From contig JACKER010000007.1 in the NCBI GenBank assembly GCA_020632925.1, forward strand, positions 308,910 through 372,909: 64,000 bases of DNA, written 5' to 3'. Shown one piece after another: positions 54,568 to 60,426 of this stretch. The DNA is from Alphaproteobacteria bacterium (GTDB taxonomy: Bacteria; Myxococcota_A; UBA796; GCA-2862545). How positions within the stretch are numbered: position 1 is the stretch's first letter; every line of letters starts with the position of its first letter. The notes under the pieces were generated by a model. That model had not been told where the DNA came from and made no database searches. It was given only the letters and a program-made list of their open reading frames with translations. The position numbers were made by a program, and so were the translations under genes.

Positions 54568-56586
54568 TCAGCGGCAGGGGACGCCGTTCTCGTCGACCCA
54601 GATCGGCCGCCTGACCCCCGTCATGAGCAGCGTGACCTCACGGCAGCGTGAGCCCGACAACGTCGCGGCCCGGTGGATCAGCTCGGAGAGCTGCCGATCC
54701 TCGGGGTGACCCGGGCGTGCGGCGTCGTCGGCCAACCCGGCGATCCGGTCGAAGCTCGTCCCCATGACGTAGGGGCTGTGGCGGAGGCGCTCCGCGAACA
54801 GCGCAGTCGTCACGGCCATCCGGTGGTCCCGCGAGGCCTCCTCGAACGAGGGCTGCATCGCCGCCGTCGGCATGGCGTAGCTCCACTCCGTGGACGCGGT
54901 GTCGGCGCCCGGGGGCTTCCCGCGCAGGCGGACGGTGGCGAGCTCGCCGGTGCTCCCGCGCACCCGCTCCACCTCGTAGAGCGCGGTCACGGTGTGCCCG
55001 GCCCCGACCTCGCCGGCGTCGATCGCGTCGTCGGCGAAGTCCCGGTCGCGCAGGGCGCGGTTCTCGTACCCGACCTGGCGATAGCGGACGACCGTCTCGG
55101 GGTTCCACGCCACCTGGATCTTCACGTCGCGGGCGACGACCTCGAGGGTGGAGGTGAGCTCGTCGACGAAGATGCGCTTCGCCTCCTCCTCGCCGTCCAC
55201 GTAGTAATAGTTGCCGTCGCCGTCGTTCGCGAGCTGCTCCATCCGGGCGTCCTGGTAGTTGCCCTGCCCGAAGCCGAGCGTGGTGAGCGTGATGCCCTCC
55301 TTCGCGTACCGGCGGATGCCGTCGGTCAGCGTGCCCGTCGTCGTGACCCCGACGTTGGCGTCGCCGTCGCTGGCGATGATCACGCGGTTCGTGTGGCCCG
55401 GGCGCAGCGTCTGGTGTGCCAGATCGTAGGCGAGCTGGATGCCCTGGCCCATCGCGGTGGAGCCGCCGGCCCTGAGCCGGTCGAGCGAGCGCAGGATGGT
55501 GGCCTGGTCGGTCGCCGGCGTCACGGGCAACACCACCCCCGCCGAGCCCGAGTAGGTCACGATGGCGACGGTGTCGCCGTCCTGCAGCTGCTCCACGAGC
55601 ATGCCGAGCGAGGTCTTCACGAGCTCGAGGCGGTCCCGGCCCTGCATCGAGCCGCTGGTGTCCACCAGGAACACCAGGTGCACGGGCTGGCGCTGGGTCG
55701 CGTCTCGCGCGGCGACCGTGATGCGCACGAGCTCGTTGTCGGACACGGGCGACGGGCTCCCCTCGAACTGGACCGCGAACGGCCCGCTCTCGGGCTGCGG
55801 CACGTCGTAGTCGAGCGCGTTGACGAACTCCTCGGTGCGGACGCTGGCCGGGTCAGGGAGGAAGCCCTGGCGCAGCTGGCGGCGCGCCCAGGTGAACGAG
55901 CCGCGGTCCACGTCGATGGAGAAGGTGGAGAGGGGCTGCTCGCGGGTGTCGCGGAACGGGGAGACGCCGTGGTCCTCGAAGCCGTCGTGGCCGGTCGGGT
56001 CGGCCATGGGCGGGATCTCGATCGTGCCGTCGATGTCGCCGTCGGCCGGGCCGGCGTACCCCAGAGACCTCAGGACCTCGTCCAGCCCATCGCCTTCGGC
56101 GTGCGGCTTCCTGACCGGCGCCTTGACGACGAGCCTGCTGCGGAGTGCCTCCGGCGGCACGTCCGTCGCGTACCTCTCGGCGCCGGGCCGCGCGGGACGC
56201 TCGCTCACGATCGTCGTCGTGTCCGTCGCGACCACGACCTCCGCGGGCGTGGGCTCGCCGCGCGTCGTGAACAGGAGCGCACCGCCGCCGCCGAGGACGA
56301 CCGCCGACAGTGACGCGGCCATCAGCGCGGAGACGCCGCCGAGCCACATCCAGCGGCGGTTCGCCGGCTTCGGCATCACGCGGGCCTCGAGCCCTTCGGG
56401 CACCAGCGTCGGCTCGGGCACGGCGCGGGCGAAGCGCTGGTCGAAGCGCTCCCGCAGGGCGGGCACGGCGTCCAGCGCCAGCGCCACCTCGTCGGCGAGG
56501 TCCTCGCCCGAGGCCGGGTCCCAGGCGTCGATCAGCGCGCCCAGTCGCTCGATCTCCTTCTCGGTCCAGGTGTGCTCGGCGCTCAT
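54568..56586 (-). CDS. Anti-sigma factor-like membrane protein with a periplasmic vWA domain (YfbK/DUF3520-like)
   Basis: ATGA overlap with the ECF sigma stop. TM segment. vWA MIDAS motif DTSGSM…. DUF3520-like C-terminus. The track ORF over-extends to 56928. Confidence 0.65.
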   Translation of the reverse strand: MSAEHTWTEKEIERLGALIDAWDPASGEDLADEVALALDAVPALRERFDQRFARAVPEPTLVPEGLEARVMPKPANRRWMWLGGVSALMAASLSAVVLGGGGALLFTTRGEPTPAEVVVATDTTTIVSERPARPGAERYATDVPPEALRSRLVVKAPVRKPHAEGDGLDEVLRSLGYAGPADGDIDGTIEIPPMADPTGHDGFEDHGVSPFRDTREQPLSTFSIDVDRGSFTWARRQLRQGFLPDPASVRTEEFVNALDYDVPQPESGPFAVQFEGSPSPVSDNELVRITVAARDATQRQPVHLVFLVDTSGSMQGRDRLELVKTSLGMLVEQLQDGDTVAIVTYSGSAGVVLPVTPATDQATILRSLDRLRAGGSTAMGQGIQLAYDLAHQTLRPGHTNRVIIASDGDANVGVTTTGTLTDGIRRYAKEGITLTTLGFGQGNYQDARMEQLANDGDGNYYYVDGEEEAKRIFVDELTSTLEVVARDVKIQVAWNPETVVRYRQVGYENRALRDRDFADDAIDAGEVGAGHTVTALYEVERVRGSTGELATVRLRGKPPGADTASTEWSYAMPTAAMQPSFEEASRDHRMAVTTALFAERLRHSPYVMGTSFDRIAGLADDAARPGHPEDRQLSELIHRAATLSGSRCREVTLLMTGVRRPIWVDENGVPCR

Positions 56587-57110
56587 CGTCCCACCCCCTC
56601 GTCGGCGGCCACCGCCGCCAGCGTGCCCCGCAACGTGAGCCGCCCCCGAGCGACCCTGCTGGCGACCGTGCCGGGGGGCACCCCGAGCACGCCCGCGGCC
56701 TCCGCGAACGAGAAGCCCTGCCCGTCGATCAACCACACGGCCTCCCGCTGATCCGCGGGCAGCCCGTCCATCGCGTCCGACAGCCGCTGACCGAGCTGTC
56801 TGCGCTCCGCCTGCCGATCGGGTCGCGCCCGATCCAGAGGGATCACCTGTCCCTCCGTTCCTTCGTCGAGCTGCACCTCGTCCCTCCGCGGCCGGCTGTT
56901 CAGGAAGGTCGTGTAGAGGACGCGGCACTGCCAGACCTCGAAGGCGCCGTCGTCCTGGAGCTGGGAGAGGCGTGCGAGCCCACGGAGCAGGGACTGTTGG
57001 ACGAGGTCCTCGGCGGTCACCGGATCCCGGGTCAGCCGCACCGCGAACCGGTACAGGGTCCCCAGGACGGGTCGTACCAGCCGCTCGAACCTCGCGTGGT
57101 CTCTGCCCAT
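56583..57110 (-). CDS. ECF-type RNA polymerase sigma factor
   Basis: Sigma-70 region 2 and region 4 (…DLVQQSLLRGLARLSQ…, …FSFAEAAGVLGVPPGTVASRVARGR). Alternative start at 57131. Confidence 0.75.
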   Translation of the reverse strand: MGRDHARFERLVRPVLGTLYRFAVRLTRDPVTAEDLVQQSLLRGLARLSQLQDDGAFEVWQCRVLYTTFLNSRPRRDEVQLDEGTEGQVIPLDRARPDRQAERRQLGQRLSDAMDGLPADQREAVWLIDGQGFSFAEAAGVLGVPPGTVASRVARGRLTLRGTLAAVAADEGVGR

Positions 57111-57164: not shown

Positions 57165-58088
57165 TCATTCCCGAAAAAAGATCCGAGAGGGGCGAGAGTC
57201 GGCGATGAACGGTCCATACGTGGAGCCGTCCTCCCGCTCGAGGAGCCAGGCGTGGGTGGACCAGGTGGGTTGTGCGCGCAGCTCACCGGGGGCGACGACC
57301 CCGTAATCGCGCCGCTCGCCCCGGTGATCGAGCCACCACAGGCGCCAGGTGGCGTCGGTGGTGTTGTGGACGACGATGTCGGTGGGGAGCCTGCCGCGGC
57401 CGGAGCGCCTGCGGTCGACCGGGCGAAGCGTGGTCCAGCGGACCCTGCCCGGCGCGCGACGTCCGCCGAGGACGGCGTCGATCAGCTCGAAGGAGACGGG
57501 GTCGTAGGCCCGGAGCCCGTCGGGACCGTCCGCTGGCGGGGAGGGGAGACGCCCGTGGTCGCCGCGGCTGCCGACCCACCACATCGCGAGCTCGGCGAAG
57601 AACTCCTCGGCGTTGGTGCCGGCGTAGGCCTGGTTCCAGCGGCCCTCGGCGAGCGCCTCGGCGTGCCGGCGGCGGACCGCGTCGCGCAGCGGGCGGTCGA
57701 GGCCGAACGAGAGCACCGCGTGCGCGAGCTCGTGGGCGCAGATGTCGCGGTGGTCGCGGTGCCGCGCGGTGGGCAGGCGGAGGAGCGAGTCCTCGTCGAC
57801 GCAGGCGTGCAGCCCGCCGTAGCCACGGCCCCGCTCGTCCACGGTCTGGCCGTCGAAGCGGGGGAGGCTCTTGAGGTGGCGCAGCCCGGGCAGGTCGGAG
57901 GGCACCTGGTCGCGTCCGATCAGGTGGAGCTCGACGCCGGCCTCTTCCAGGTTCGCGACCACCCCGGGACACCGTCCCAGCAGCCGCTCGATGCGCCGCT
58001 CCGCCTCGTCCAGCGCCTCGTCCGGCACGGCGGCGTGTGCTCGGACGGTCACCCCGCGCCGCACGCGCTCCTTCGAGAAGAAGCTCAC
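57165..58088 (-). CDS. Zinc-dependent peptidase, MtfA/M90-like (HExxH … EEFFAE)
   Basis: CAHELAHAV + …NAEEFFAELAMWW glutamate-zincin pattern. GTG start in GTGA overlap with the Kir stop. Confidence 0.55.
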   Translation of the reverse strand: MSFFSKERVRRGVTVRAHAAVPDEALDEAERRIERLLGRCPGVVANLEEAGVELHLIGRDQVPSDLPGLRHLKSLPRFDGQTVDERGRGYGGLHACVDEDSLLRLPTARHRDHRDICAHELAHAVLSFGLDRPLRDAVRRRHAEALAEGRWNQAYAGTNAEEFFAELAMWWVGSRGDHGRLPSPPADGPDGLRAYDPVSFELIDAVLGGRRAPGRVRWTTLRPVDRRRSGRGRLPTDIVVHNTTDATWRLWWLDHRGERRDYGVVAPGELRAQPTWSTHAWLLEREDGSTYGPFIADSRPSRIFFRE

Positions 58089-58978
58089 GCGGAGTGTCCA
58101 GGGAGGGTGAGCGCCGCGGGCTTCACCTCGTGGATCCTCGAGAAGTCCACGAATCGCTCGCCGTTGGCATCGGTACCGAACAGGTCGACGAACTTGTACC
58201 CGAAGCGGATCTCGTCGGCCTGCCAGAGGTGGCGCGCGTGGACGGAGGACGCGAGCGAGTCGTCGATGCCCGTCAGCGTGACGATGAGCATGGTCCGCTC
58301 CCGAGCGAAGTCCGCTGGACCCTTGCCCCACATGGGGCTGCTCTCGTCGATCGGGTGGTAGACCACCCAGGACACGCCGAACATCGGGCTCGTCCGGCGA
58401 CGAACGGGCAGGTCGTAGATCCGGCGCACCGTCTCGCCGTCCGCCAGCACCTCCTCGCGGGTCAGGCTGAACGTGACCGTGGCCTCGACGATGGCGGTGG
58501 ACCGCGCGTTCGCGCAGCGGAACATCAGGGTCGGCACCCCCTCGATGTCCGCGACCACGCAGGTCTCGCTGAAGGCCACGCGGGCGGACGGCGTGCTGAA
58601 CTTCCCGTAGAAGACGCCGGTGACGACGGCGGTGTACACCACGCCGACGAAGCTCTCGAGCGTCACGATGGCGTGGGACAGCCAGTCGTCGGGCGACAGG
58701 CCGCCGTACCCGATGGTCGCCATGGTCTGGACCGAGAAGTAGAACCGCGGCCAGAAGCCCGGCTCCGCGCCGGTGATCGCCGCCCCCGTCACCCAGAGCA
58801 GCAGACCGAAGAAGCCGTTCAGCGCGAGGTAGATCAGGAGGAAGACCAGCGTCAGCTGACCCCAGGAGAGCGTGCGCAGGGCGTGGTACCCGTCGGTCCC
58901 GAGCCGCGTCCACAGCCGATCGTCGACGCCGGCACGGCGGATGGCGAACACGTTCTTGGGGCCGGTCGTGGCCTGCAT
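58085..58978 (-). CDS. Inward-rectifier-type potassium channel (Kir-like)
   Basis: TIGYG selectivity filter. 2 TM plus a cytoplasmic Ig-like domain. 297 aa. Confidence 0.75.
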   Translation of the reverse strand: MQATTGPKNVFAIRRAGVDDRLWTRLGTDGYHALRTLSWGQLTLVFLLIYLALNGFFGLLLWVTGAAITGAEPGFWPRFYFSVQTMATIGYGGLSPDDWLSHAIVTLESFVGVVYTAVVTGVFYGKFSTPSARVAFSETCVVADIEGVPTLMFRCANARSTAIVEATVTFSLTREEVLADGETVRRIYDLPVRRRTSPMFGVSWVVYHPIDESSPMWGKGPADFARERTMLIVTLTGIDDSLASSVHARHLWQADEIRFGYKFVDLFGTDANGERFVDFSRIHEVKPAALTLPGHSA

Positions 58979-58995
58979 CGGTCGGCGGCGCTCGC

Positions 58996-59592
58996 TCACG
59001 TCGGACCTCGCTTCAGCCCCACGCCACGGCCGTCGATGCGATGCAGCAGGTCGTCCACCATGCGCAGCGTCAGACCCCAGAGCCGCGGGTGCGACAGCCC
59101 CCGGAGCTCGACCGCGGGAAGCGTCAGGCGCTGGTCTCCGCGCTCCCAGGTCATCGTCGTGCGGCCCTCGCCCGAGAGCAGGTCGGACAGCGCGACGGTG
59201 TGCGTCCCCGCCACCTCCGAGGGGTTGGGGCGCAGCGGGGGCAGCTGGCCGGGGAGGAGGAAGACGTAGGGCCGGATGACCATCCCGGGGCGTCCCCCGA
59301 CCGCGGCCAGGTCGTCGAGTCGGCCGAGCAGCTGCGCGTCGTGCAGATCGAGCCCGACCTCCTCCACCGTCTCGCGCCTCGCCGCGTCGAGGGGTTCCTC
59401 TTCGGGCTCCACGCGACCACCCGGGAACGACAGGTGGCCGGACCACGGGTCGTTCGGATGCTCGGTTCGCTTCAGCAGCAACAAGTCCAGGTCCGCCGTG
59501 AAGATGGCCGATACGGCTGCCCAACCGGCGGTCGGTCGGAGCGACGTCACCGGGCGGGACAGAGCTTCACGAAGGGTCTCGGACGTGGTCAT
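58996..59592 (-). CDS. NUDIX hydrolase (CoA pyrophosphatase-like)
   Basis: Nudix box GHLSFPGGRVEPEEEPLDAARRETVEEVG. LLLKR upstream motif typical of NudL. Confidence 0.7.
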   Translation of the reverse strand: MTTSETLREALSRPVTSLRPTAGWAAVSAIFTADLDLLLLKRTEHPNDPWSGHLSFPGGRVEPEEEPLDAARRETVEEVGLDLHDAQLLGRLDDLAAVGGRPGMVIRPYVFLLPGQLPPLRPNPSEVAGTHTVALSDLLSGEGRTTMTWERGDQRLTLPAVELRGLSHPRLWGLTLRMVDDLLHRIDGRGVGLKRGPT

Positions 59593-59640
59593 GGTGCGGG
59601 GAGTATGGGTTAAGGTTCGCCGGCGCGCCCGGAGCGGTTC

Positions 59641-60426
59641 TTGAGCAGCACCGATCTCATCGACGAAGAGAAGCCCGCGACCGGGATGGGCGCCTGGTTC
59701 GTGGAGGTGCTGCGCACCTGGATGCCCGCCATCCTCGCCGTGCTCCTCATCCGGACGTTCATCTTCGAGCCGTTCCGTATCCCGTCGGGGTCGATGATCC
59801 CCACGCTCCTGATCGGCGACCACGTGGTGGTGAACAAGGCGAGCTACGGGCTGTGGGTGCCGTACACGCTGGTCGAGGTGCCCTTCATGGAGAGCGCCTG
59901 GATCGTGCCCCGGTTCGAGCTGCTGGACCTCGGCGACCCCGCGCGCGGCGACATCATCGTGTTCCGCTTCCCCGAGAACGAGGCCCTGAACTACATCAAG
60001 CGCGTCGTCGCGATCCCGGGCGACAAGATCCAGGTCAAGAACAACCAGATCTTCCTCAACGGTGTGGCGCAGGAGCGGAAGTACCTCGACCGGTACGAGT
60101 CGATCGACGACAGCTGCAACGTCACCTCGACCAAGCGGTACCTCGAGAACCTCGACGGCCTCGAGCACTACAACCTGACCAACGCGGGCGGAGGCGGGCC
60201 GCTGGCCAACTGGCCCCGCGACGGCAGCGAGTTCACGGTGCCCGAGGGCAACGTCTTCGTGATGGGCGACAACCGCGACAACAGCGAGGACGGCCGCCGC
60301 TGGGGCACCGTGCGGTACGACCAGATCAAGGGCAAGGCGCACTTCGTGTGGTTCTCCTGGGACAGCTGCGAGCAGAAGGTCCGCGCGAACCGGTTCTTCA
60401 AGTCGCTGTACAAGCTGACGGAGTAG
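59641..60426 (+). CDS. lepB: Signal peptidase I
   Basis: SGSMIPTLLIGD (Ser box) and VMGDNRDNSEDGRRWG motifs. TTG start per the ORF track. Confidence 0.8.
   Translation: MSSTDLIDEEKPATGMGAWFVEVLRTWMPAILAVLLIRTFIFEPFRIPSGSMIPTLLIGDHVVVNKASYGLWVPYTLVEVPFMESAWIVPRFELLDLGDPARGDIIVFRFPENEALNYIKRVVAIPGDKIQVKNNQIFLNGVAQERKYLDRYESIDDSCNVTSTKRYLENLDGLEHYNLTNAGGGGPLANWPRDGSEFTVPEGNVFVMGDNRDNSEDGRRWGTVRYDQIKGKAHFVWFSWDSCEQKVRANRFFKSLYKLTE

Follow-up and report, generated by a model that had tools for sequence, protein, structure and literature searches.

A lineage-specific gene string with a KirBac-type channel gene holds a peptidase with a predicted PPEP-like catalytic domain and a VHL beta domain

The window analyzed here is a 64,000-nucleotide stretch of DNA from a metagenome-assembled genome (MAG) of the Myxococcota, to which protein MCB9683718.1 (locus tag H6735_01595) belongs, and the locus of interest is a string of five genes on its minus strand. 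The first gene encodes a Nudix hydrolase of 198 amino acids (positions 58996-59592; ATG at 59592, TGA at 58996-58998). It is followed by the gene of a KirBac-type K+ channel, which ends with a TGA at 58085-58087 and can be read either from GTG 58999 (58085-58999, 304 aa) or from ATG 58978 (58085-58978, 297 aa). The third gene (57165-58088; GTG at 58088, stop at 57165-57167) encodes a two-domain zinc peptidase of 307 amino acids. The string is completed by the gene of an ECF sigma factor (56583-57110, ATG at 57110), whose product contains Sigma70_r2 and r4_2 domains and scores above the TIGR02937 cut-off, and by the gene of the presumed anti-sigma factor (54568-56586), a membrane protein that contains vWF_A, VWA and YfbK_C domains. 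The lepB gene lies divergently from the Nudix gene on the plus strand (59641-60426), and the promoter of the unit presumably lies in the short intergenic region between the two (59593-59640). The flanks are made up of housekeeping genes, including lepB, a tricorn protease gene and a TonB receptor gene. GC content is uniform across the locus, which shows no island-like composition and contains no mobile genes.

The five genes are separated by gaps of 0-54 nt and share three 4-nt overlaps. At 58996-58999 the Nudix stop overlaps the possible GTG start of the Kir gene in the sequence GTGA, with a GAGG 6 nt upstream, and at 58085-58088 the Kir stop overlaps the GTG start of the peptidase gene in the same manner. 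The earlier note on this DNA had seen the second overlap and had placed 17 nt between the Nudix stop and the Kir start. This distance applies to ATG 58978, whereas the alternative GTG overlaps the stop; the GTG option is the start used by NCBI in the sister genome (the 304-aa protein P0022). The peptidase stop is 54 nt from the sigma factor start, and the sigma factor stop overlaps the anti-sigma start as ATGA (56583-56586). A consensus scan found no terminator-like site on the minus strand from 59592 to 54568. The genes from Nudix to anti-sigma are probably expressed as one transcript, which agrees with the compact cluster running into the sigma factor gene that the earlier note had described. 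No match to the sigma-70 consensus was found in the Nudix-lepB intergenic region, a scan that is uninformative for promoters in a GC-rich genome.

A locus with about 92% nucleotide identity is present in the MAG of a sister species (GCA_020430605.1, locus L010). In comparison with it, dN/dS is 0.13 for the Nudix gene, 0.06 for the Kir gene and 0.12 for the peptidase gene. This indicates that the three open reading frames are real genes under purifying selection. Both GTGA junctions are also present in L010. Such overlaps are nothing unusual in this window, since a 4-nt start/stop overlap is possible at 14 of the 31 same-strand adjacent gene pairs of a crude gene call.

The product of the first gene matches the Nudix family model PF00293 with an E-value of 7.9e-18, which bears out the identity given in the earlier note. 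Its Nudix box, read from the translation, occupies residues 59-81 (59350-59418) and fits the consensus G-x5-E-x7-R-E-U-x-E-E-x-G-U (G59...E65...R73-E74-T-V-E77-E78-V-G80-L81). The best NCBIfam match is the CoA pyrophosphatase model NF007980 (E 1.2e-11), which is covered from position 39 to 188 of 192 with 44.6 bits against a cut-off of 134. The best match in the PDB is the CoA pyrophosphatase of D. radiodurans (1nqy, E 5e-10). The CoA motif that precedes the Nudix box in CoA pyrophosphatases is matched only in part by the segment LLLKRT...G-HLS-FPGG. Judged from these similarities, the enzyme is most likely CoA-pyrophosphatase-like.

The identity of the second gene product was likewise recognized correctly in the earlier note. 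It contains the IRK_C domain (PF17655, E 1.8e-22) together with Ion_trans_2 and IRK, and it aligns with KirBac3.1 (E 1.3e-63, residues 13-285) and KirBac1.1 (E 8.6e-55). The selectivity filter TIGYG is formed by residues 88-92 (58703-58717), and T88, G90, Y91 and G92 are invariant among 25 homologues. The protein is most likely an ordinary member of the KirBac family, with a tetrameric two-transmembrane K+ pore and a cytoplasmic IRK_C gating domain.

The N-terminal domain of the peptidase (residues 1-215, 57444-58088) is a zincin domain of the M34-like type. It contains the motif HELAH (residues 119-123, 57720-57734) and, downstream, Y155...E162...E166 (57591-57626), of which the glutamates lie within the segment NAEEFFAE (residues 159-166). 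Tyrosine and glutamate are present in Y-x6-E spacing. An hhalign comparison places H119, E120, H123, Y155 and E162 opposite H142, E143, H146, Y178 and E185 of the Pro-Pro endopeptidase PPEP-1. The catalytic residues are kept in all 19 members of the subclade to which the peptidase belongs and in 57-62 of 62 members of the wider family. The intact HExxH...E site reported in the earlier note is confirmed. In the structure model, which is of high confidence, the domain is predicted to adopt the two-subdomain fold of the PPEPs and anthrax lethal factor (LF), which is the M34 architecture. Sequence similarity to the PPEPs is marginal, with an hhalign probability of 11.9% and no PPEP found in a PDB sequence search, and the match to the ATLF model PF07737 is not significant (E 0.38; 10.9 bits against a cut-off of 27.4). 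In the hhalign alignment, non-conserved residues stand opposite K101 and W103 of the PPEP S-loop, with no clear equivalents; in PPEPs, Lys/Arg and Trp/Tyr at these S-loop positions and the diverting loop impose Pro-Pro specificity. The family instead has an invariant motif of its own, R86-x-R88-G-Y-G91-G92, ahead of the edge strand. The earlier note had called the protein an MtfA/M90-like zinc peptidase. The zinc peptidase part of this assignment stands. The M90/MtfA part was ruled out, because the M90 model PF06167 matches neither the whole protein at E≤0.01 nor the catalytic domain at E≤10 and MtfA is not the closest fold.

The note had also missed a second domain. Residues ~228-305 (57174-57407) form a VHL beta domain, which is recognized both by the family model PF01847 and by its beta-sandwich fold. 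The hydroxyproline pocket of human pVHL, as established by the pVHL-HIF structures, is made up of W88, Y98, S111, H115 and W117. In an ungapped alignment with VHL the corresponding residues are W252, Y262, T275, H279 and W281. These five positions are kept in 18-19 of the 19 subclade members and are mostly conserved in the wider family. The alignment covers 81 of 148 VHL residues, and the peptidase ends at residue 307, directly after the beta domain. The VHL alpha domain with the BC box, which binds Elongin C, is absent from the protein; the VHL domain of the window is therefore not an E3 adaptor.

Proteins combining the zincin and VHL beta domains form a large, widespread, uncharacterized and unannotated family, for which a profile search at E≤1e-30 returned at least 324 clusters at 50% identity. 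An N-terminal extension resembling a signal peptide is present in 31 of 62 members of the wider family and absent in 18 of 19 members of the subclade. The window peptidase opens directly with its first beta-strand; the Kir gene lies immediately upstream, and the upstream genes leave no space for a signal peptide in the window or in the loci L001, L002 and L007. The window peptidase is thus presumably cytoplasmic, while enzymes of the wider family seem to be extracellular and to serve catabolism. In relatives, the zincin domain is fused to a GH127 beta-L-arabinofuranosidase (four clusters), to an alpha-L-arabinofuranosidase (one cluster) or to DPP-IV/S9. The substrates of the GH127 enzyme HypBA1 are hydroxyproline-linked arabinosides (PMC7263609, PMC6085000). 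One relative adjoins the gene of the hydroxyproline dehydratase HypD. This adjacency was seen once, in a setting with a separate promoter-like site; the other neighbors in the metagenomic loci are heterogeneous. The fusions and the HypD neighbor point to substrates rich in proline or hydroxyproline.

Conservation of the gene neighborhood was searched from both the Kir and the peptidase side. The trio of Nudix, Kir and peptidase genes was found elsewhere only in L010, where synteny covers the whole string and extends to lepB on the other side. The peptidase and the other partners are missing from 57 other Kir contexts; at 53 GTDB Kir loci, no peptidase, Nudix or ECF gene is present within 5 kb. 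The Kir relatives with 60-63% identity are accompanied by genes for globin, ATP-grasp or other proteins. Neither Kir nor Nudix genes occur near peptidase relatives in 19 contexts (7 annotated and 12 metagenomic), and no ECF sigma gene adjoins Kir or peptidase relatives elsewhere among the sampled contexts. The sample reflects the holdings of the collections, some metagenomic contigs are short, and a Kir relative with 79% identity on a 1.1-kb contig was left out. A conserved module of the Kir gene with either the peptidase or the Nudix gene was thus rejected.

Some neighbors do recur beside Kir genes. Across the 53 Myxococcota loci these are a Trypsin_2-PDZ gene upstream and a convergent aspS, the former seen in the Kofleriaceae; a weak C14 match lies near the Kir gene of one MAG. 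The recurrence of Trypsin_2-PDZ and aspS is judged to be family-level synteny. The presence of proteases beside Kir genes elsewhere, Trypsin_2-PDZ and the C14 match alike, may point to a looser association of channels with proteases.

In the reading that we consider fairly probable, the five genes form a lineage-specific string that is probably transcribed as a unit, and the first three products most likely act independently. The trio is probably not a dedicated system, since apart from this bacterium a single sister species was found to have its genes side by side. Two points count against independence. Genes that share an operon are in most cases related in function, and two species have retained the same layout.

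In one alternative, the five genes form one autoregulated ECF sigma stress operon, in which co-expression is adaptive in this lineage while the products have no direct biochemical coupling. The Kir channel would then adjust osmotic balance or membrane potential, with the Nudix enzyme removing CoA derivatives and the peptidase serving turnover. The short gaps and overlaps, the stretch free of terminator-like sites from the Nudix gene through the end of the anti-sigma gene, and the synteny of the string and lepB in L010 are in favor of such an operon. However, relatives of Kir and the peptidase elsewhere have no adjoining ECF sigma genes, and the scan found no promoter. ECF sigma genes usually have their own promoter directly upstream, which would here be expected within the peptidase gene or immediately downstream of it. 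We regard the stress operon as unlikely, but as the strongest of the alternatives to independent products.

The earlier note had proposed a channel-based effector or conflict module. In such a dedicated signaling or conflict system, the peptidase and/or the Nudix enzyme would control the Kir channel or be controlled by it, for example by proteolysis of the cytoplasmic part of Kir or by way of a ligand derived from a nucleotide. This proposal would suit the translational coupling at both junctions, the retention of the layout in the sister species and the purifying selection on all three genes. The peptidase is apparently cytoplasmic, as is the Kir C-terminal domain, and proteases of other classes adjoin Kir genes in other Myxococcota. 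Against this, 4-nt overlaps are a common junction type in this genome, and the Kir-adjacent proteases elsewhere belong to unrelated classes with unrelated predicted locations and represent family-level synteny. The proposal had been made dependent on the conservation of the Kir and peptidase genes as neighbors, and this expectation has essentially failed: the pair was absent from the 57 Kir and 19 peptidase contexts and recurs only in one sister-species MAG. The models of PADLOC-DB 2.0 match neither Kir, peptidase, sigma factor nor anti-sigma factor; the Nudix protein matches the candidate PDC-S07 over the generic Nudix box only (E 1.5e-8). Membership in a defense system was rejected on these grounds. 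Together with the housekeeping flanks, the uniform GC content and the absence of mobile genes, this makes a dedicated module improbable.

For the peptidase itself, in the reading of independent products, we propose the following mechanism. H119, H123 and E162 would bind the zinc ion, E120 would act as the general base, and Y155 would stabilize the oxyanion. The pocket of the VHL beta domain, formed by W252, Y262, T275, H279 and W281, may serve as an exosite for docking the substrate by one of its hydroxyprolines or prolines. With such docking, the enzyme would cleave peptides rich in proline or hydroxyproline. A tentative reading, to which we give about one chance in three, takes all members of the family for endopeptidases that are directed at hydroxyproline or proline and act on substrates resembling collagen or extensin. 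It is less radical and more likely than the assumption that the subclade lacking signal peptides reads prolyl-hydroxylated cytoplasmic proteins through the VHL pocket and cleaves them. Such a hydroxyproline-degron protease would be a bacterial analogue, within one polypeptide, of the oxygen-dependent PHD-VHL pathway; in this lineage its expression would be shared with a K+ channel and an ECF sigma system, and it would possibly tie oxygen status to one of them. This is very improbable, because the five retained pocket positions, the intact catalytic site, the missing signal peptide and the coupling of the nearest Kir relatives to a globin gene are set against heterogeneous subclade neighborhoods, a wider family of extracellular and catabolic appearance, and the absence of any prolyl hydroxylase match in the window and 79 loci in a low-sensitivity tblastn search that used an approximate sequence of the human PHD2 catalytic domain as query.

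Taken as a gene system, the locus is an ordinary lineage-specific operon of unrelated genes that holds an interesting peptidase. This peptidase deserves attention as a member of a widespread unannotated family in which a PPEP-like catalytic domain is combined with a VHL beta domain that retains the hydroxyproline pocket. The family yields the testable hypothesis of a new class of proline/hydroxyproline-directed proteases. If this is true, a function would for the first time be assigned to a VHL beta domain of prokaryotes. Proteases of this kind would be of interest for the degradation of collagen and of glycoproteins in plant cell walls, as protease tools, and for the question of how the VHL hydroxyproline reader arose in evolution.

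In comparison with known systems, the Kir protein shares full-length homology, the two-transmembrane TIGYG pore and the IRK_C cytoplasmic domain with KirBac3.1 and KirBac1.1 and does not differ notably from them, but its gene context is unlike that of all other sampled relatives. The Nudix protein shares the Nudix box and full-length similarity with CoA pyrophosphatases of the NudL type, such as DR1184 of D. radiodurans, but its score of 44.6 bits falls far short of the 134 bits required at equivalog level, so that the substrate assignment is putative. The structural similarity of the peptidase to MtfA (M90) and to the catalytic domain of anthrax lethal factor is clearly below its similarity to the PPEPs, and the Mlc-related context of MtfA is absent around the window peptidase. 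The degradation of hydroxyproline-rich glycoproteins by GH127 HypBA1 and GH121 HypBA2, as well as HypD, is linked to the peptidase through fusions and adjacency in distant relatives only, whereas the window contains no GH127, GH121 or HypD gene. The beta domain of pVHL is the hydroxyproline reader of the HIF pathway; its counterpart in the window lacks the alpha domain and BC box and is fused to a protease. Among peptidases, the closest comparison is with PPEP-1, -2 and -3 (MEROPS M34, EC 3.4.24.89), with which the peptidase shares the zinc-site residues and the predicted fold, while the K/R and W/Y of the S-loop are not recognizably conserved. The PPEP homologue CD1597 is inactive (PMC12828418). 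The described PPEPs are secreted and restricted to Firmicutes (PMC8610288, PMC12828418), whereas the window peptidase is a protein of the Myxococcota that has no signal peptide and carries an additional VHL beta domain.

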